IMG/VR virus record: IMGVR_UViG_2724679539_000005
Span: 12,292-76,291 of that record
Strand: one strand, 5' to 3'
DNA from: a virus
Taxonomy: Duplodnaviria; Heunggongvirae; Uroviricota; Caudoviricetes
Length of the DNA stretch: 64,000 nucleotides
Shown one piece after another: positions 4,584 to 25,754 of the stretch. Positions within the stretch are counted from its first letter, which is position 1. The number at the start of each line of letters is the position of its first letter. Made by a program: the position numbers and the translations under genes. The notes beneath the pieces are model-generated. The model ran no database searches. It saw only the letters and a program-made list of their open reading frames with translations, and was not told the origin of the DNA.

Positions 4584-4934
4584 CCTAACCTGGTGACGGT
4601 GGTTCGCATATCCTGATGGATGATCAGTGATTAATCAATGCGCCAAGCAGATGTGTCTATGTGTTTGTTAATCATTGCATGACAGTAGATCGACATGGGA
4701 GATCACGTTATATAGTTGAATTGTTAGGATATCCATGCACCGATCAACTGACTAGGCTGATGTGCTTTTTAGCAGGTGCCATATAGTAGTTAGGCGGTTC
4801 TGTGAAATGATTACTGTTCCAGCATAACTGCGGCATAAAGCGGTGCTATATAAGCTATTTGCTGGCGGATTTAGTCTTCACCGTTAATATATGTAGTGAC
4901 TATTTGACAGAGTGTTAGTTCACGGACACTTTTT

Positions 4935-5043
4935 GTTGGTTCAAAATGAGTTGATGTTGGTTCAATATTTTAGAAAAAACACAATAAAAACAACGCTCTT
5001 TACAAATTGAACCAACTGAACCAACTGAACCAACTGAACCAAC
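4935..5043. repeat. iteron-like 9-bp repeats TGAACCAAC: two inverted copies and four perfect tandem copies
   Basis: GTTGGTTCA at 4935-4943 and 4958-4966; (TGAACCAAC)x4 at 5008-5043. Lies in the divergent intergenic region between the 361-aa cassette and the PerC-like gene. Confidence 0.6.
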
Positions 5044-5079
5044 ACCTTTTTGCTTATCTATATAATCTGAGAGGCAGAA

Positions 5080-5361
5080 ATGATAAGGGACAGGAAAGCT
5101 GAAGAGCTGGAGTCAAAAGGGCTATACCGGAGAGCTGCCGCACGATGGATGGAAGTCATGCTGTTATGCACCGAGGACGATGATCGGGAATGGATAAAGC
5201 GCCGCCGTGAAACGTGTCTGGAGAACGTGAAGCGCCCGCCCGTGAAGGTTGAGGAATTTGGCGACCTGCATAAAGCTGTTACCGAAACGCAACACCGCAT
5301 GGGGATAGCGCAACCGAACGGTAACGCCTTCCGGTTAAATGGCGGCAAGAGGCAAAGGTAG
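5080..5361 (+). CDS. PerC-like small transcriptional activator (93 aa)
   Basis: Size and N-terminal pattern (KAEELE..GLYRRAA.RW.EV) recalled as PerC/Pch family; not verified by search. Confidence 0.45.
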   Translation: MIRDRKAEELESKGLYRRAAARWMEVMLLCTEDDDREWIKRRRETCLENVKRPPVKVEEFGDLHKAVTETQHRMGIAQPNGNAFRLNGGKRQR

Positions 5362-5658
5362 ACCACCAGAGGGAAATCATCCTCTGGCTGGCGGTTTCTG
5401 GTATTTCGGGACAAGTACGCGCACGCGTAGCACCCAATCGGTGAGGAAATAGCGGCGACCTGAATGGTCAAAATCACAACGCAGCTATCCCCGTAAGCAT
5501 CGCTTAACGGAATAGCAGTAACCTGAATCCAGTGGGGAGGGGGTAGTCAAATCTCTACAGGCCTGACTATCCGGGACTGCCCGCCCCATCGTTTTTTTAT
5601 ACCCGCGAAAAATGAAATTTAATCCGGGCGTGTTTCATCCTTCCAGAGGGTATGACGT

Positions 5659-12027: not shown

Positions 12028-12438
12028 TTAGTGATTCAGGCCGTTACCGCGTCCGTCGAGAAAAACTTCCACGAGCAAATCACGGGTATAAGTGCGCTCG
12101 ATGCCGCGATGCAGATAAAGCCGTCCGCGTAAATTAGCTGATGCAGTCCAGGTACCATCTTTGTGTTTGACCAGCATTCCTGGCATGACCGCACCTCGAT
12201 TAACGGTCTGCGTTCCATAATGTTGATGAACCATAAAAACTCCTGCCCGTAAGCTGGGCTGCTGAACATATAGAGACTTCTGCGCGTATTCAGGCGGTGG
12301 ATGGCCGCCGGTTGTCATAACTAAGCCGCCTCGTTGAAGCGACTGAGGTATGAGGTGTTGAGTTGATTTCAGCTGGTCACACCGACGTTCACGCGTCCGT
12401 TTCACCCCTCGCACTCCCCGGAGCCTGCCGAAATTCAA
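12028..12438 (-). CDS. hypothetical early-left protein with Arg-rich N-terminus (possible N-like antiterminator or Kil-position gene)
   Basis: First ORF downstream of the putative OL/PL; N-terminal [10 protein letters not shown] motif resembles an arginine-rich RNA-binding motif. Assignment not established. Confidence 0.3.
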
Positions 12439-18428: not shown

Positions 18429-19847
18429 TTAGAAAATAATGTTTGCTATATCCGAGATAGCATTTAAAGAACCTCTGTGGTCACTTCCTGTTTTAGGTAA
18501 AATATAGGAATATCGAGGGTCTTCATTATATGTTAACTTCCAGTGTTTTCCATCGCTTGACGCACTGAAACCTAAGTCCTTTAAATTTCTTTGTGTTGCG
18601 CTATCCATGCTTCTGTAACCTGTTAAAGTCCTTTTAAGTAATTGGCGGCGACTCTCGGTTTCTTTATTGTATTCATTATTGGCAATTAGGGATGATAAGA
18701 TATGGTAGCTTCTACCAAATTCATTTTTATTTTTTATGGCAGTTTTTAGCGCGTCAATAATTATATTTTTGATTTCTCCATCAAAAAAATCAGTCTCTTC
18801 ACCAGCATTAAGCACAATGCTTCCTTGGGCTGAAGCTTGTGATTGAAGAGTGCGTACTCTGTGCTCTAAAGAGGAGATCTTATGCTTAAGATCTTCTATT
18901 TGGTCATCTTTCGCAACATTATCGGCTTCGTAAAGCGCCATCAGTTCGCGTGTGTATTCTCCTCTTTCTTTGAGTGAGTTAATAGAGTCTTTCGTTTTTC
19001 TGGTTTGTATCTCACTCCATCCACTATCTGAGACAGGAGCCATTGTAGTCGTAGCTCTTACAACATCATCAAATAACTCATCTTCAAATTCTTTTGCGGT
19101 TTTCTCACCACGGCGATAAAAACTGATATTTTGACCCCGTGGCCAATAGATACCAACAGCACCAGCATAGGCATTTTTAGCATTTGTCTCATTTTTTAGC
19201 TTAATAGAAAATAGTCTATTGCTAGGCTCAATTAATACATGTGCTAATCCGCATACCTTTCTTGCAAGGCGTTCTGGGATGATATTGTGAGCATGTTCAT
19301 TAAAAAAATACTTGGAGCTAACGTATATTATTGGTAGTCTGTTGTCAGTTTCACCATTTATAACTTTAGCTGCTATATTTAAATGTTCATCAGTATCATC
19401 TAAGGAATGAGGTTCGACTGACACCTTGAAAATATCATCAAGACCACCAGAAAATTTATCAATCAATCTCATAACAACTAATGGTTTCTTAGGTTGCGGG
19501 GCTAGATAAGCTGCATCTTGGCTTACAACGCTAGATTCCACCTGAATCCACATGGTATCAGTTTTGAGATTTTTATTAATTGAAATATCTGTTACCCATT
19601 TGTGTGGCTCAGATATTTTCGAATACCTAAAACAGCCTAAACTAGTATCTTTGTTTTTATAAGTTATTATATCAATTCTTTCATTTTTAGACTCTATGAA
19701 GTACTCCTCGCTTTTATAATCACATACTAATTGTGCTGGAATAAAAGTTGTATGTGGTGAGTCGTTTACCCAAGAAAAACATTCATTAAAGATCTCAGCT
19801 AGAGATGTGGAGTTTGAAACATAAAAACCAGTTGAGAAATATTTCAT
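18429..19847 (-). CDS. uncharacterised 472-aa protein (nin-region moron on the antisense strand)
   Basis: Long clean ORF, strongly AT-rich, opposite to the phage early-right operon; coiled-coil segment (EDLKHKISSLEHRVRTLQ); no family recognised. Confidence 0.7.
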   Translation of the reverse strand: MKYFSTGFYVSNSTSLAEIFNECFSWVNDSPHTTFIPAQLVCDYKSEEYFIESKNERIDIITYKNKDTSLGCFRYSKISEPHKWVTDISINKNLKTDTMWIQVESSVVSQDAAYLAPQPKKPLVVMRLIDKFSGGLDDIFKVSVEPHSLDDTDEHLNIAAKVINGETDNRLPIIYVSSKYFFNEHAHNIIPERLARKVCGLAHVLIEPSNRLFSIKLKNETNAKNAYAGAVGIYWPRGQNISFYRRGEKTAKEFEDELFDDVVRATTTMAPVSDSGWSEIQTRKTKDSINSLKERGEYTRELMALYEADNVAKDDQIEDLKHKISSLEHRVRTLQSQASAQGSIVLNAGEETDFFDGEIKNIIIDALKTAIKNKNEFGRSYHILSSLIANNEYNKETESRRQLLKRTLTGYRSMDSATQRNLKDLGFSASSDGKHWKLTYNEDPRYSYILPKTGSDHRGSLNAISDIANIIF

Positions 19848-19950
19848 GAAATTTCCTTATTAAAAATGAGATTAATCTCATTGGCTATGATAATTGTTAC
19901 CCTCCTTTGGATCTAGTGTTCATTTGACATAAGAACCTATTGATTCATCA

Positions 19951-20092
19951 TAATCAACTCGCCATAATCATGTCATCGGAGCCTAAAAAACTCCGGTGAC
20001 TTCTGCGCTAAACGGGGACGTTTATGCGCACACACAATCCAAACTCTCATCTCCATTCACAGATGCAGAAATGCACCTACGATTTTTTACAT
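19951..20092. repeat. about 140-bp direct repeat, copy 1 (about 90% identical to 21885-22027)
   Basis: Shared sequence ...GCCATAATCATG...CTCCGGTGACTTCTGCGCTAAACGGGGACGTTTATGCGCAC...GATGCAGA(A/G)ATGCACCT(A/G)CGATTTTTT. Confidence 0.8.
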
Positions 20093-20507
20093 TCGGTGTT
20101 TTACTTCGACAGCCAGAATTGGGAGTCTCTATTCGTCTGGCGGCTAAAGGTGATATGGAAATCGTTATGTTTTGGCCTGAGGTAGTTGTAACTGTTGTAG
20201 CAGCTATGGCTGTGATCATCATGGTGTCCATTTACTGGGGTTGACGACATGATTTATCCGGCGCTATATTCTGTGCGTTGCCGCAAAATCGGCACACGGG
20301 ATTGGCGTCCCGGGATACTACTCAACGCATACCGCGTTAAGCGGTTTTTTTGTGCGCTAAGCACGGCTATGCCCAAATTATGGTGGGCTGTGTGAGGGCT
20401 TCTTCGGAAGCGCCGGGTTTGAGTAGCCGGTTACGCCAACCTTACACAGTTCACCACCAGTCGATTGGCGTCGTTGGTGGTGATGGTTAACCTGATGAGG
20501 TGATACT

Positions 20508-21116
20508 ATGACTACTCAATTAGCATTCCACAAAACGACGTTTACCCCGATTTGCCACAATAACAGAATTTGGCTTACTGCCACTGAAGTTGGTTTAGCA
20601 CTGGAATATGCGGACGATAAAGCAGTTCAGCGCATTTACTCTCGGCACTCAGATGAATTCACAGATATGATGACAAGGGTGGTCAAAGTGACCACCCCTC
20701 GTGGAATGCAGGAGTCTCGAGTATTTAGCCTTCGCGGAGCCCATTTGATCGCCATGTTTGCTCGTACTCCTGTGGCCAAAGAATTCCGCCGCTGGGTTCT
20801 GGATATTCTCGATCGAGAAGTTCAACAATCCCCAATCACAAAACAATTCACTGATAACGAACTTTGCACACTCGCCTGGTTATGGCGAGCAAGTGATACG
20901 ATGTTAACCGCCTGCCAGAACGTTACGCCCCTTCTTCAGGTCGCAGAGCATCGCGAAGCAGGTAGATTCACTTCAATCGAACAAGAATATCCTCGGATAC
21001 TCAACAGGGCGCGAGAAATCCTTGCCAGAGAAACGGCGCATGTAAAATTCCAACCGTGGCAGGATGATAAGTGGAGTCGTGTGTTACCATATTTCCGTCA
21101 GAATCTGTTGCAATAA
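20508..21116 (+). CDS. Bro-N / KilA-N-like domain protein (antirepressor/Roi-like)
   Basis: N-terminal pattern IWLTATEVGLALEY...RVFSLRGAHLIAMFARTPVAKEFRRWVLD typical of Bro-N family DNA-binding proteins. Confidence 0.55.
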   Translation: MTTQLAFHKTTFTPICHNNRIWLTATEVGLALEYADDKAVQRIYSRHSDEFTDMMTRVVKVTTPRGMQESRVFSLRGAHLIAMFARTPVAKEFRRWVLDILDREVQQSPITKQFTDNELCTLAWLWRASDTMLTACQNVTPLLQVAEHREAGRFTSIEQEYPRILNRAREILARETAHVKFQPWQDDKWSRVLPYFRQNLLQ

Positions 21117-21351
21117 AGTCACTAGTTAGAAATACTGCCAGCATTCTGCGATGACGGAAGTGCTGGCATTTTTTTTGGTAATGTGCGAGTCCATTTCATA
21201 AAATACGGGTACTGGAACTGGACGATATAATCTAAAAGATACCATTATCAGTAGCATTAAAATCGCTATGTGCCGATACGGATATAAATTATATTGATTG
21301 TTCACATACCTTATTGGATATTACTGAGGGGTGTTTATATAAGGTGTAACG

Positions 21352-21861
21352 ATGATGTGGAACTTTGACAGTGCCGACTTAAGTGCAATAGCAGCAGGCA
21401 TTTCTGCGTTTGGCACATTAGCCGCAGCGGGGTCGGCGCTTGCAAGTTGGTACACGTCAAAAAAAGCGCTGCAGCTACAAAATAGAGTTTACCTTTATGA
21501 GTCTTTAAAGGCTTGCGCTGAGAGAGCCAATTCATCAGCTAAAGATAAGCGCGGATCTGAATGGAGCGTTAATGATGCAGCGGATATCATCAGGTGCCTA
21601 GTACGGGCGATGGAGATCATCAAGCAGGATAGCCAGCAGAAAGAAGGTAATCAGGCATTAATGTTGAAACAGTACTTTGTTAATCTGCTAATAATGGAAC
21701 TGTACGAGGAAGTTCATAACGGTGATGCGGCTGATTCTGTTTTTAAAAGTACGGAACCTACACAAGTACTTGATAACTTATGGAGCAAATGGCAGGAGGC
21801 TATAGCTTTTTTTGATATTTGGAATTACCCAGTTGCGACTGAGGAAGACTTGGCAGACTAA
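21352..21861 (+). CDS. hypothetical protein (169 aa) with N-terminal transmembrane helix
   Basis: Hydrophobic N-terminus (LSAIAAGISAFGTLAAAGSALASW); AT-rich; inside the repeat-bounded cassette. Confidence 0.45.
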   Translation: MMWNFDSADLSAIAAGISAFGTLAAAGSALASWYTSKKALQLQNRVYLYESLKACAERANSSAKDKRGSEWSVNDAADIIRCLVRAMEIIKQDSQQKEGNQALMLKQYFVNLLIMELYEEVHNGDAADSVFKSTEPTQVLDNLWSKWQEAIAFFDIWNYPVATEEDLAD

Positions 21862-21884
21862 TTTTCAGCACATTTGATTTCCAA

Positions 21885-22027
21885 TAATCAACCAGCCATA
21901 ATCATGCCATTGGAGCTTGAACAACTCCGGTGACTTCTGCGCTAAACGGGGACGTTTATGCGCACATACAATCCAAACTCTCTTCTCCCTTCACAGATGC
22001 AGAGATGCACCTGCGATTTTTTGCATC
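21885..22027. repeat. about 140-bp direct repeat, copy 2, immediately upstream of ybcN
   Basis: See copy 1. Confidence 0.8.
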
Positions 22028-22055
22028 CAGCGTTTGACCTCTGCGGAGGTGAAGC

Positions 22056-22511
22056 GTGAACCTCCCACAAGACGGCATCAAATTGCATCGTGGTAACTTC
22101 ACTGCTATCGGTCAGCAGATCCAGCCTTATCTGGAGGAAGGCAAATGCTTTCGCATGGTGCTTAAACCGTGGCGTGAGAAACGCAGTCTTTCCCAGAATG
22201 CACTCAGCCACATGTGGTACAGCGAAATCAGTGAATACCTCATCAGCAGGGGTAAAACGTTCGCCACTCCAGCTTGGGTAAAAGATGCTCTCAAACACAC
22301 ATATCTCGGTTATGAAACCAAAGACCTGGTTGATGTCGTAACCGGTGAGATCACCACTATCCAGTCGTTACGCCATACCTCCGATCTTGATACCGGAGAG
22401 ATGTATATCTTCCTGTGTAAGGTTGAAGCCTGGGCGGTGAATATTGGCTGCCACCTGACTATTCCGCAGAGCTGCGAGTTCCAGCTGCTCCGCGACAAGC
22501 AGGAGGCGTAA
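22056..22511 (+). CDS. ybcN: YbcN-like nin-region protein
   Basis: 151 aa, GTG start preceded by GGAGG; [21 protein letters not shown] motif; matches DLP12 YbcN as recalled. Confidence 0.75.
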
Positions 22512-22681
22512 TGGCTACACCGCTTATTCGTGTCATGAACGGACACATCTACAGAGTATCAAATCGTCGTAAGCGTAAACCTGAGCTGAAGCCATCCGAA
22601 ATACCAACTCTGCTCGGATATACCGCCAGCCTGGTTGATAAAAAATGGTTGCGACTGGCAGCAAGGAGGAATCATGGCTGA
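22511..22681 (+). CDS. ninE: NinE-like protein (56 aa)
   Basis: Small basic ORF (RRKRKP...YTASLVDKKWLR) in the ninE position; below the track cutoff. Confidence 0.55.
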   Translation: MATPLIRVMNGHIYRVSNRRKRKPELKPSEIPTLLGYTASLVDKKWLRLAARRNHG

Positions 22682-22964
22682 TTTGAGAAAAGCAGCGCGT
22701 GGTCGGGAATGCCAGGTAAGAATCCCTGGCGTATGTAATGGCAATTCTGAAACGTCTGTACTGGCACATATCCGGCTGGCTGGATTGTGCGGTACCGGTA
22801 TCAAACCGCCAGACCTGATTGCCACCATCGCATGTTCTGCCTGTCACGACGAAATCGACCGCCGCACACATTTTGTCGATGCTGAGTATGCAAAAGAATG
22901 CGCGCTGGAAGGTATGGCGAGAACACAGGTTATCTGGCTGAAAGAGGGGGTTATTAAGGCGTGA
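22674..22964 (+). CDS. ybcO: YbcO-like (DUF1364) putative nuclease
   Basis: Cys-rich motif ([20 protein letters not shown]...CSACHDEID); AAGGAGG RBS 7 nt upstream of the ATG at 22674. Confidence 0.7.
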
Positions 22965-23323
22965 ATACCTACAGCATCACATTACCCTGGCCTCCGAGCA
23001 ATAATCGCTATTACCGCCATAATCGCGGGCGCACGCACGTCAGCGCAGAGGGGCAGGCATACCGCGATAACGTCGCCCGAATCATTAAAAACGCAATGCT
23101 GGATATCGGCCTGGCTATGCCTGTGAAAATCCGTATTGAGTGCCACATGCCGGATCGCCGTCGCCGTGACCTGGATAATCTGCAAAAAGCCGCTTTTGAC
23201 GCACTCACCAAAGCAGGTTTCTGGCTGGATGATGTTCAGGTCGTTGATTACCGTGTTGTGAAGATGCCCGTTACCAAAGGTGGGAAGCTGGAGCTGACCA
23301 TCACTGAACTGGGGAATGAATGA
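22961..23323 (+). CDS. rusA: RusA Holliday-junction resolvase
   Basis: 120 aa, [31 protein letters not shown]...; matches RusA as recalled. Confidence 0.9.
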
Positions 23324-23460
23324 TGTTTGAGTCTTATATGGCAGAACGTCTTCGCCACCGCTGGATGCGCCTGCGCTTATATCGTTTCCCCGGTTCTGTT
23401 TTGACCGATTACCGGATACTGAAGAATTATGCCAAAACCCTGACAGGAGCAGGAGTATGA
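23320..23460 (+). CDS. ylcG: YlcG-like small protein (46 aa)
   Basis: [46 protein letters not shown]; overlaps the rusA stop. Confidence 0.6.
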
Positions 23461-23530
23461 AGTCAGAGATAACAATCAACTAATACTGTTTTGTTGATTT
23501 TTGCTTGTAATTGGCGTTCTGGTCTGATTT

Positions 23531-23923
23531 TTGTGGAGTAAGTTGATGCGTGATATTCAGATGGTTCTTGAGCGTTGGGGAGCGTGGGCGGCTAATAATC
23601 ATGAAGATGTGACCTGGTCGTCCATTGCCGCCGGTTTTAAGGGATTAATTACTTCAAAAGTAAAATCTCGCCCGCAATGTTGTGACGATGACGCGATGAT
23701 CATTTGCGGGTGCATGGCCCGTCTGAAAAAGAACAACAGCGATTTGCATGATTTATTGGTGGACTATTATGTCGGCGGCATGACTTTTATGGCGCTTGCA
23801 CGTAAGCATGGGCGATCTGATTGTTGGGTTGGCAGGATGCTCCAGAAAGCTGAGGGCGTAGTGGAGGGTATGCTGATGGTGTTGGATCTCCGATTGGAGA
23901 TGGATGCTGATTGTTCGAAATAA
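23531..23923 (+). CDS. late-gene antiterminator Q (21/82-type)
   Basis: About 127-130 aa Cys-containing protein in the Q position, followed by a promoter-like sequence and terminator hairpin. Confidence 0.7.
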
Positions 23924-24077: not shown

Positions 24078-24602
24078 TTATTGTTTAACCCATAATAATT
24101 CATTGACATTGAATCCCAACTTTTGAGCGGTTCGCACATAGTCTGCTTTTACTTTATCTGGAATAGTTGGGGTCCTTGCCAGAATCCATAGGTATTCTCT
24201 GTTCGGACCACTGACAAGAGCATACTTATACTTATCATCCAGTTTGATTACATTATAGCCACCATAGAAGGGGCCAAAAAACGAAACCTTCAACGCTGCA
24301 GTTTTAGTATCTCCAGTAAAGTATGCTTTACCTTCGCTCTCGCTCCATTTATTTTTCGTTGGATCGTATCCACGGTTAAGTACACGAATCCCTCCGTCGT
24401 TCCGTTTTCCATAAGTAGCGCTGACCTGTTCCAGACCACGTTCGAACCGGTTCTCGAGGCGAGCTATTTCATACCATTTTCCGAGGTAGCGGTTGGCGTC
24501 AAAATTTGTAATCGGCTGCACACCTTTAGGTGGTGTCGGGGCCTTACATGCTATAAGAGTGAAAGAGAGTGCAATGCCAGTCAACACAGGCCATAACTTC
24601 AT
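24078..24602 (-). CDS. blc: outer-membrane lipocalin Blc
   Basis: 174 aa; lipobox (LIAC); lipocalin signature NFDANRYLGKWYEIARL. Confidence 0.85.
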   Translation of the reverse strand: MKLWPVLTGIALSFTLIACKAPTPPKGVQPITNFDANRYLGKWYEIARLENRFERGLEQVSATYGKRNDGGIRVLNRGYDPTKNKWSESEGKAYFTGDTKTAALKVSFFGPFYGGYNVIKLDDKYKYALVSGPNREYLWILARTPTIPDKVKADYVRTAQKLGFNVNELLWVKQ

Positions 24603-24794: not shown

Positions 24795-25754
24795 ATGATA
24801 AAAAAACCTGTGATTGGAATCAGCGGTTGTTTGGCCGGTTCTGCTGTTCGTTTTGATGGTGGTCACAAAAGAGCTGACTTTTTAATGGACAAATTAGTGG
24901 AATGGGTAACATTCAGACCAGTATGTCCAGAAATGGCTATAGGGCTGCCAGTTCCGCGTCCTGCTCTACGTCTTGTGCGCTCGACGCAAGGGAATATACG
25001 GATGTGTTTCAGCCACGACCAGAATGAGGATGTGACAGAGAGAATGACAGAGTTTAGTCGTTCTTATATGGACAAATTAAAGGATGTATCGGGATTTGTG
25101 GTTTGTGCTAAATCTCCCAGCTGTGGCATGGAGCGCGTGCGTGTCTATGATGAAAATGGTAATCGAGGTCGTAAAGATGGAGTGGGACTATTTACGAGCA
25201 CTTTGATGGAAAAGTTTTCCTGGCTACCGGTTGAAGAGGATGGGCGATTACATGATCCAGTGCTTCGTGAGAATTTTGTTGAAAGAGTTTTTGCTTTGCA
25301 TGAGCTCAATCACCTTTACAAGGAGAAATTATCAAGAAGAGAGTTATTAGCTTTTCATAGTCGTTATAAGCTTCAGTTGTTGGCGCATAGTCAGGCAGGC
25401 TATAAAGATATGGGACCATTTGTGGCTGCAATACACGAGTGGGCGGACCTTGAATCATACTTTGAGGTGTATCGTGATAAGCTGATGGCGATTCTCAGAA
25501 AACCTGCATCACGTAAAAATCACACGAATGTGCTGATGCATATACAGGGGTATTTTAGTAACTACTTAAGTACACGCCAGCGTAAAGAGTTGAGCGAGGT
25601 TATACTTAACTATCGTTCTGGCACATTACCTCTTCTTGCGCCGTTGACTCTGCTGAAGCATTATCTGGGTGAGTATCCTAATGATTACTTGCTTACACAG
25701 AATTACTTCGATCCCTATCCGGACGAACTGGCTCTAAGACTGATGGTAAATTAA
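24795..25754 (+). CDS. DUF523/DUF1722-like two-domain protein (319 aa)
   Basis: N-terminal GISGCLAG...FDGG pattern and overall size recalled as the DUF523-DUF1722 fusion family; not verified. Confidence 0.5.
   Translation: MIKKPVIGISGCLAGSAVRFDGGHKRADFLMDKLVEWVTFRPVCPEMAIGLPVPRPALRLVRSTQGNIRMCFSHDQNEDVTERMTEFSRSYMDKLKDVSGFVVCAKSPSCGMERVRVYDENGNRGRKDGVGLFTSTLMEKFSWLPVEEDGRLHDPVLRENFVERVFALHELNHLYKEKLSRRELLAFHSRYKLQLLAHSQAGYKDMGPFVAAIHEWADLESYFEVYRDKLMAILRKPASRKNHTNVLMHIQGYFSNYLSTRQRKELSEVILNYRSGTLPLLAPLTLLKHYLGEYPNDYLLTQNYFDPYPDELALRLMVN

Follow-up and report, generated by a model that had tools for sequence, protein, structure and literature searches.

Why does a prophage carry the same stretch of DNA on either side of a small group of genes, and what does the repeat do there? 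The question is raised by a window of 64,000 nucleotides (the whole stretch of DNA analysed here; positions 12,292 to 76,291 of the IMG/VR virus record IMGVR_UViG_2724679539_000005), which represents an Escherichia coli lambdoid prophage with the order O, P, ren, an 84-aa open reading frame (ORF), a 472-aa gene on the minus strand, repeat copy A, a cassette, repeat copy B and the genes ybcN-ninE-ybcO-rusA-ylcG-Q. The repeated unit, of about 170–185 bp, is named R in this report, and its copies A and B are referred to as R_A and R_B. It is probable that both repeats are copies of a conserved promoter-leader module, and that recombination between R copies moves the cassette, which encodes an antirepressor and a 169-aa protein. 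A preliminary description of the locus had regarded the repeat as the upstream region of ybcN, duplicated during capture of the cassette and possibly acting as a recombination or regulatory module. This interpretation is supported in part: the empty site, the regulatory module and the mosaic joint are borne out, whereas the duplication at capture and a small hydrophobic ORF of 29 codons next to copy A are not. Coordinates are window positions and features lie on the plus strand, unless stated otherwise.

The repeat pair and its empty sites

A direct-repeat search of positions 18500–23500 returned a single family, consisting of 19940–20107 and 21874–22041, with a length of 168 nt, 87% identity and a spacing of 1934 bp. 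In ungapped comparison the copies are 90.8% identical over a 142-nt core (19951–20092 versus 21885–22026) and 86.9% identical over the 168 nt, and their homology stops at about 20092–20107. With copy A as blastn query against the whole window, copy B was found at E = 2.8e-55, the remaining matches being chance words of 11–12 nt; likewise, an nhmmer profile of R recognizes exactly two copies within the 64-kb window. The direct repeat pair of about 90% identity given in the preliminary description is thus confirmed, and the gene content between the copies (a Bro-N gene and a 169-aa protein with an N-terminal hydrophobic stretch) is as described there. Its placement of the second copy at the native upstream region of ybcN also agrees with the present analysis, in which copy B is the intact native module.

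Two relatives, loci L002 and L150, contain the same 472-aa gene but no cassette; in both, one R is present and the matched stretch is shorter by 1934 bp. In the single R of L150 (strain TUM9868) all bases diagnostic of copy A are present as far as 20033, and all those diagnostic of copy B from 20049 on, the only exceptions being two loop positions which are private mutations of the copy A in the window. The single R of L002 (strain EFF60) was considered as a third, non-hybrid allele, but this was rejected, as it is a hybrid of the copies of another two-copy relative, L151 (strain LR-50). It shows one switch, with 22 A-type informative sites followed by 45 B-type sites, and this switch is located at a different place from that in L150, upstream of the second hairpin of R. 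Occupied and empty alleles can be paired in two independent cases, in each of which one homologous crossover between the direct repeats relates the one to the other. As every empty-site R is a precise hybrid produced by a single crossover, the cassette is gained or lost through homologous recombination between R copies.

Because the copies are direct repeats, ordinary homologous recombination between them is possible, and would either delete the 1934-bp cassette or install it from a donor phage. Loss takes one intramolecular event, gain a two-copy donor. Among the top matches for E. coli genomes with the 472-aa gene, empty sites outnumber occupied sites.

Distribution and anatomy of R

Copy A has a match, mostly a single one, in 2759 of 5426 complete E. 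coli genomes, and R also matches the phages 82, phi80, HK639, HK225 and PhiR26_1 and several recent isolates. Loci that were fetched via the YbcN protein alone, independently of R, contain an upstream R in Escherichia, Enterobacter, Citrobacter, Huaxiibacter, Siccibacter and Phytobacter; R is absent from the Pantoea and Rosenbergiella loci fetched in the same way. Phage lambda is without R; its ren–ninB interval contains the tR2 terminator alone. In Rfam 15 neither repeat copy matched a family at the gathering threshold or at E-values up to 5, and in the literature on ylcH and ybcN transcription no paper on R, nor any functional study of it, could be found. R is a widespread conserved module and not an insertion leftover.

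In copy B (21874–22055) the module starts with a predicted promoter, consisting of a −35 hexamer TTGATT (21874–21879), a 17-bp spacer and a −10 hexamer CATAAT (21897–21902). It is followed by hairpin H1 (21906–21934), which in R has a loop of 9 nt with the consensus YYUGAACAM, and by hairpin H2 (21939–21963) with the loop GGGA at 21949–21952. Beyond H2 come a C-rich, G-poor linker, hairpin H3 (21995–22012) with a GNRA loop, a U-rich stretch and the ribosome-binding site, with a predicted anti-Shine-Dalgarno/Shine-Dalgarno pairing at 22037–22050 and the Shine-Dalgarno sequence GGAGG at 22045–22049, and finally the GTG start codon of ybcN at 22056. Over 21964–22041 the leader body counts 25 C and 11 G. 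A promoter scan finds TTGATT, 17 nt and CATAAT just upstream of H1 in both window copies. The sigma-70-like promoter, at a fixed distance from H1, has at least 9 of 12 consensus positions in 106 of 115 unique R copies, as compared with 6.8% of shuffled sequences, and the spacer measures 17 bp in 105 of the 115. The −35 hexamer is also one half of a palindrome, TTGAT-N8-ATCAA (19940–19957 and 21874–21891; 79 of 115 unique R copies), the halves of which are perfect FNR-type half-sites with a non-canonical spacing (N8 instead of N4).

The predicted hairpins are conserved in structure rather than in sequence. When folded individually, all 49 variants of H1 and all 40 variants of H2 give the same hairpins, and for H2 at least six compensatory stem alleles exist, among them UAAACG/CGUUUA, AUUUAAG/CUUAAAU and UUUGAG/CUCAAA, which are different at most positions yet complementary. 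An alignment of R on MAFFT and RNAalifold missed H2, of which the alleles lie one column out in the raw alignment; instead, per-sequence folds and an alignment to a covariance model were used. In the latter, which comprises 92 distinct R sequences, 98.2% of the pair cells hold a standard pair, as opposed to 82.5% for shuffled sequences and 23–39% for slid partners, and 22 of the 26 base pairs vary on both sides. The model matches both window copies end to end, copy B over 21903–22023 at 91.8 bits and copy A over 19969–20089 at 97.2 bits. By this comparison of sequences H1 and H2 are strongly supported by covariation, while H3 is nearly invariant. With the conserved promoter, the covarying leader hairpins and the leader ORF described below, the proposal of a regulatory module has gained substance.

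The closest described counterpart of copy B is the region upstream of orf33-orf151 in phage 82 (GenBank X92588), which corresponds to ylcH-ybcN of the K-12 prophage DLP12 and is 93.7% identical to copy B over 175 nt. Both have the −35 and −10 hexamers, the inverted repeat (H1), the ribosome-binding site, the 33-codon ORF and the overlapping start of an Orf-family gene; the difference is that phage 82 has a single copy, whereas in the window the region is duplicated and brackets a cassette. In the phage 82 record a putative −35, a putative −10, the ribosome-binding site and orf33 are annotated, and the H1 inverted repeat is given as a 'possible regulator-binding site'; beyond this putative promoter and site, no analysis of an RNA or a leader peptide was found for the region. 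In the phi80 record H2 is labelled IR4. Entry X92588 is reportedly due to Mahdi, Sharples, Mandal and Lloyd (1996). Its predicted promoter, its hairpins and its leader ORF make copy B a full member of the phage 82/DLP12 orf33 leader family.

Several other identities of R were considered and rejected. Equivalence to lambda tR2 does not fit, as lambda has a strong terminator between ren and ninB and no R, and the terminator-like site in R itself has a weak 5-bp stem with a U-run that is not conserved. The anti-sRNAs of the AgvB/AsxR type (sRNA, small RNA) and the Pas sRNA are located downstream of PR′ or near lysis genes. Readings as nut/boxB, put or ops were rejected as well, because the stems of R vary around fixed loops and the position is wrong; an ops-like string is present in some R alleles only.

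Cargo exchange at R

The genes on the two sides of R differ greatly in diversity. For 153 R copies the upstream neighbours fall into at least 47 protein clusters, while the downstream neighbours are essentially of two types, YbcN (99) and NinB (29). In the window the upstream position, just before copy A, is occupied by the 472-aa gene (18429–19847, minus strand), which lies in the hypervariable slot between ren and R and has a weak PADLOC match to HEC-07 (1e-9); it is possibly a defence gene. The same slot holds PD-lambda-1/DUF4041 in phage PhiR26_1 and locus L003, or, in relatives, SNIPE-associated genes. Given these contents and the weak HEC-07 match, the interval from ren to R looks like a hotspot for defence genes and morons.

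The alleles of H1, of H2 and of the 3′ part of R are found in many combinations. From H2 on, the cassette is identical in L003 and phage PhiR26_1, but the promoter and H1 of copy A are of another allele, which travels with PD-lambda-1/DUF4041. These allele patterns indicate that recombination inside R also swaps the upstream cargo. Two expectations raised by the preliminary description are borne out by relatives of the window: those without the insert keep a single repeat copy (1934 bp shorter, and an A-left/B-right hybrid in two lineages), and R behaves as a recombination module in the sense of a mosaic joint, with at least 47 families upstream against essentially two downstream and with sub-segments that reassort.

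A separate case of paired R copies was noticed in the viral contig L103 (6844–11100 of that contig), where two copies, 4.1 kb apart, surround ORFs of 380 aa, 620 aa (colicin/HNH-like) and 84 aa (immunity-like). The second R of this contig heads a 271-aa Q-like gene, not an Orf-family gene.

The leader ORF and a possible mode of action

Copy B contains the leader ORF ylcH (orf33 of phage 82; 33 codons, 21958–22059), which is present in the ORF list and as RefSeq CDS WP_001309322.1. The ORF starts with an ATG 5 nt past the H2 loop and ends with a TGA that shares bases with the GTG start codon of ybcN (GTGA). The ybcN gene (22056–22511; ORF list, RefSeq, Pfam, PMC4118853) encodes a recombination mediator of the Orf/NinB family and is the first gene of ybcN-ninE-ybcO-rusA-ylcG-Q. 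A start codon for the leader ORF is found in 115 of 116 unique R copies (106 ATG, 8 GTG and 1 TTG). In 101 of the unique copies it follows 5 nt after the purine-rich H2 loop and hence lies within the 3′ arm of H2. The length is 31–33 codons in 105 of 115, and the stop codon overlaps the start of the next gene, as GTGA before ybcN and as ATGA in other sequence types. In contrast, the N-terminal halves of the peptides are unrelated between alleles (MRTYNPNS.., MRPQSELL.. and MQTTIRTP..). As frame and length are kept and the peptide is not, translation of the ORF, rather than its product, appears to have a role.

The most likely reading of this arrangement is that the Orf-family gene is translationally coupled to the leader ORF, with H2 limiting initiation. 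R stands at the fixed right border of a hypervariable slot for cargo, which follows the replication genes in lambdoid phages and prophages of a large family, and it heads an operon starting with an Orf-family recombination gene, ybcN or ninB. In its transcripts H2 would display a Shine-Dalgarno-like GGGGA loop and hold the start codon in its 3′ arm, thereby limiting initiation on the leader ORF. Ribosomes translating the 31–33 codons would pass the C-rich stretch and H3, cross the ribosome-binding site of the following gene and stop on its start codon (ATGA or GTGA). In this manner transcripts from R would express ybcN solely via translation of the leader ORF. Copy A is an older, partly decayed R, fused to a 145-bp segment and placed before an independent antirepressor unit and a cargo gene. 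A more far-reaching proposal, to which we give somewhat less than even weight, is that R is an uncharacterised cis-regulatory leader of three hairpins and a coupling leader peptide, possibly with Rho acting on the C-rich body, which gates the nin-to-Q operon from its own promoter in many lambdoid prophages, and that it serves in addition as a portable homology anchor for swapping defence genes, antirepressor modules and bacteriocin cassettes.

Experimental hints on R are weak. RNA of ylcH has been detected in E. coli, with a 2.03-fold increase under microaerobic conditions in one transcriptome table (PMC8910356), and the promoter need of rusA in K-12, given below, is the other.

The anatomy, conservation and covariation of R, its hybrid empty sites and its reassortment are seen directly in the sequences; other parts of the account have points against them. 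The firing of the R promoter and the translation and coupling of ylcH are inferred, and so is the direction of the recombination event, since the hybrids fit loss and gain of the cassette alike. The ribosome-binding site of ybcN is not unusually occluded, its mean unpaired probability being 0.39 versus 0.27 with shuffled upstream sequence. In K-12 the rusA gene, downstream of R, requires promoters supplied by insertion sequences for adequate expression (PMC4118853), which suggests little productive read-through from R in that strain. Furthermore, the covariance-model alignment is fitted to the structure, although the independent single-sequence folds agree with it, and most R copies were gathered with an exact 21-nt anchor. 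As this anchor sits inside H3, the invariance of H3 is partly due to ascertainment; an independently fetched R copy from Siccibacter has a compensatory change in H3 (UGCU-GAAA-AGCA). Finally, the account takes the first two-copy arrangement and the 145-bp segment with the 29-codon ORF (orf29) as given.

Decay of copy A

Copy A (19940–20107) has the same predicted elements as copy B: the −35 hexamer TTGATT (19940–19945), the −10 hexamer CATAAT (19963–19968), H1 (19972–20000), H2 (20005–20029, with the loop GGGA at 20015–20018) and H3 (20061–20078). In its H1 loop the conserved CCTGAACAA is replaced by CCTAAAAAA, through two substitutions at 19985 and 19988. The change is shared only with the near-identical strain of locus L001, and represents a private change in an otherwise strongly conserved motif. 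The leader ORF of copy A has 53 codons (20024–20185); it resembles ylcH over its first ~24 codons and has no Orf-family gene coupled to it. In R_A copies of different lineages the leader ORF measures 53, 46 or 14 codons, as compared with 31–33 in the intact state; it is truncated in L122. The Prokaryotic Genome Annotation Pipeline (PGAP) calls the O157 counterpart a pseudogene without its C-terminus; in copy A of the O157 type, moreover, the promoter and the upper stem of H1 are degraded and H3 contains a mismatch. Judged from its sequence, copy A is an old, partly decayed R, and because of its 53-codon leader ORF with no Orf-family gene after it, it is classed as a partial or decayed member of the family.

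The bracketed cassette

Downstream of copy A lies a module with the predicted promoter TTGACG, an 18-nt spacer and TATATT (20241–20270; 10 of 12 matches in the promoter scan). It precedes an isrK-type RNA (20279–20351; Rfam RF01394, 58.7 bits, gathering score 50), whose intrinsic terminator (20331–20345) is followed by a T run. The family RF03163 (c4-a1b1) overlaps isrK with 39.6 bits, below its gathering score of 46.7, and the isrK-type RNA is putatively the a1/b1 target region of a C4 system. The C4 antisense RNA itself is located at 20376–20461 (RF01695, 74.8 bits, gathering score 45) and is overlapped by an orf45-like ORF of 36–46 codons (20350/20380–20490), which ends 18 nt before the antirepressor start. 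Neither the isrK nor the C4 RNA, between copy A and the Bro-N gene, figured in the preliminary description. The antirepressor (20508–21116; 202 aa, AnrP/Ant-like) matches Pfam Bro-N (4.4e-10) and P22_AR_C (1.7e-17) and the anti-repressor Ant families of PHROG, and is named 'P22AR C-terminal domain-containing protein' in RefSeq. A predicted intrinsic terminator closes the unit at 21136–21177, with GCCAGCA...TGCTGGC followed by T8; it is the minimum-free-energy hairpin within a 74-nt fold of −23.2 kcal/mol.

The variable 3′ cargo in the window is the 169-aa gene (21352–21861; phrog_1779 at 1.2e-102). Its N-terminal segment is hydrophobic, with a Kyte-Doolittle 19-residue maximum of 1.59 at residue 13, and relatives of the gene lie directly upstream of R in 15 loci. 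In its place, O157:H7 prophages have a HEPN-domain gene and a partner (4834–5630 of locus L148), and strain LR-50 has a frameshifted gene similar to DNA polymerase III theta together with two other ORFs (3777–4842 of L151).

The same isrK/C4/antirepressor module occurs in the O157:H7 prophages. In loci L117 and L050 it is found without an upstream R, in L117 right after ren, and homology with loci lacking copy A begins at 20236–20239, the left edge of the module. Copy A together with a 145-bp segment that contains the 29-codon ORF (19940–20235) is joined to the isrK module in 304 of the 308 E. coli genomes having the junction. Phage P1 has a comparable immI operon, c4-icd-ant. From these signatures the insert appears to be an antirepressor switch of the P1 immI or Gifsy-1 type, with its own predicted promoter and independent of copy A. 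The short IsrK RNA of Gifsy-1 turns on the translation of AnrP, and the prophage is induced as a result (PMC4825925). The insert also has the attributes of a moron, as it is placed between genes that are adjacent in relatives (the empty sites of L002 and L150) and has its own predicted promoter and predicted terminator.

Alternative explanations

Could the repeat have been made by the insertion itself, as a target duplication or by a copy-paste act of the capturing agent? Two direct copies flanking one insert, and an empty site with one copy, would agree with this, and the preliminary description had likewise supposed a duplication during cassette capture. However, the copies are 9–13% apart, whereas the flanking DNA is 97–100% identical between strains, and the two-copy layout is present in about 300 E. 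coli genomes (308, in three diverged sequence types of 84–100% identity). Moreover, the antirepressor module also exists without copy A, copy A is partly decayed, and the R copies of L103 bracket a different cassette. No transposase, integrase or terminal inverted repeats are found in 19848–22055; a transposable element is likewise not indicated by repeats of 168 nt that are 87% identical, with no terminal inverted repeats or transposase ORF, and a length of 150–170 bp far exceeds any known target-site duplication. An origin at insertion is therefore very unlikely. The chances are hardly better, and the reading is quite unlikely, that the repeat is a duplicated fragment of the conserved small gene ylcH with no role at cassette boundaries, the outcome which the preliminary description had named as its refutation. 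It is true that copy B overlaps an annotated 33-aa CDS and that PGAP takes the O157 counterpart of copy A for a truncated pseudogene, but about 84 of the 168 repeated bases precede the ORF and bear the promoter and H1, the N-terminal half of the peptide is not conserved while the hairpins covary, and the breakpoints of cargo exchange fall within R. Conserved hairpins at cassette borders, with several different cassettes bracketed by R, might also suggest a site-specific recombination site with a fixed exchange point, of which the hairpins are recognized by a recombinase as in integron attC. This is highly improbable, since the natural hybrids switch at different places (20033–20049 versus upstream of H2), alleles reassort at several intervals, no recombinase is consistently linked, and the copies, in direct orientation, behave as ordinary homology.

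A last alternative concerns the 29-codon hydrophobic ORF MEIVMFWPEVVVTVVAAMAVIIMVSIYWG (20155–20244; ORF list), of which the coding status is doubtful. Copy A and this ORF might function together to produce a small membrane peptide, for instance a hok-like toxin coupled to the overlapping leader ORF. The predicted peptide is indeed a hydrophobic single helix (Kyte-Doolittle 2.55), the leader ORF overlaps it, the segment is kept in 304 of the 308 genomes with the isrK junction, and the ORF matches the C-terminal half of a PHROG family (phrog_4612, 1.7e-16). That match, however, reflects gene calls starting at an AUG inside H3 without a ribosome-binding site. Only 2 nt separate the Shine-Dalgarno sequence from the ATG, and in L122 even the leader ORF of copy A is truncated. 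In the O157-type variant, which is 83.6% identical, codon 7 is a stop codon; this variant belongs to the 80–90% identity band, into which 177 of the 308 genomes fall. In tblastn searches of the 29-aa and 57-aa ORFs against phages there was no match, or a match in the same context only. A working peptide unit is thus unlikely. The ORF noted in the preliminary description is present, but it is not conserved as an ORF, and because of the codon-7 stop, the 2-nt spacing and the calls starting inside H3 it is probably non-coding or a relic.

Relation to known systems and significance

Recombination at short conserved sequences between modules is familiar from lambdoid phages. The present case is ordinary lambdoid mosaicism caught in the act: as module exchange at conserved boundaries is well known in these phages, it is an unusually clear instance and not a new kind. 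Like lambdoid morons, the insert forms an autonomous unit, with a predicted promoter and a predicted terminator of its own, between genes adjacent in relatives, and is exchanged at a conserved boundary; morons and mosaic joints of lambdoid phages go back to Juhala et al. 2000, as cited in PMC4104026. What differs is that the boundary in the window appears to be itself a promoter-leader unit, and that it is present twice in one genome, so that both the occupied and the exact hybrid empty states can be observed. Repeated structured elements between exchangeable cargo are also typical of integron attC cassettes, but R comes without an integrase, its crossovers lie at differing points, and it is a promoter-leader, not a recombination site.

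Short leader ORFs that are coupled to the next gene occur as well in mok/hok and in attenuator leaders. The design proposed for R resembles such systems, without a sequence relationship: in orf45-anrP of Gifsy-1, too, a short upstream ORF ends on the next start codon and a hairpin holds the initiation region (PMC4825925). The Gifsy-1 locus isrK-orf45-anrP is, in addition, the nearest counterpart of the insert, with isrK and its terminator, a C4-type RNA over an ORF of ~45 codons, and the antirepressor in the same order on one strand (PMC4825925). It is located downstream of the Q-like antQ, whereas the cassette in the window is upstream of the nin operon, with copy A before it and variable cargo after it. 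By RNA and protein signatures the insert can be assigned to the isrK/C4 antirepressor family.

The exchange of cargo among lambdoid prophages can be followed at this locus concretely, at the level of the sequence, as occupied and exact hybrid empty alleles show the crossovers directly. At least 47 gene families, PD-lambda-1 and a candidate defence gene among them, are found in the slot bordered by R. A more interesting by-product is R itself, a leader element in about half of the complete E. coli genomes with no Rfam family, which, being placed ahead of recombination-mediator and Q genes, may influence prophage gene expression in lysogens. Finally, the analysis places an isrK/C4 antirepressor switch, which in Gifsy-1 is prophage-inducing, in E. 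coli prophages, including those of O157:H7.

Neighbouring observations

Just downstream of the Q antiterminator gene (23531–23923) the window contains a lipocalin-family gene (24078–24602, minus strand) and a YbgA-family gene (24795–25754). As relatives have a porin gene (OmpC/OmpD) at this place, it constitutes a second cargo slot. The closest relative of the window, L001 (strain UID2309220033), has a truncated replication gene O beside an IS66-family transposase (1–877 of that locus), and that prophage is therefore probably defective.

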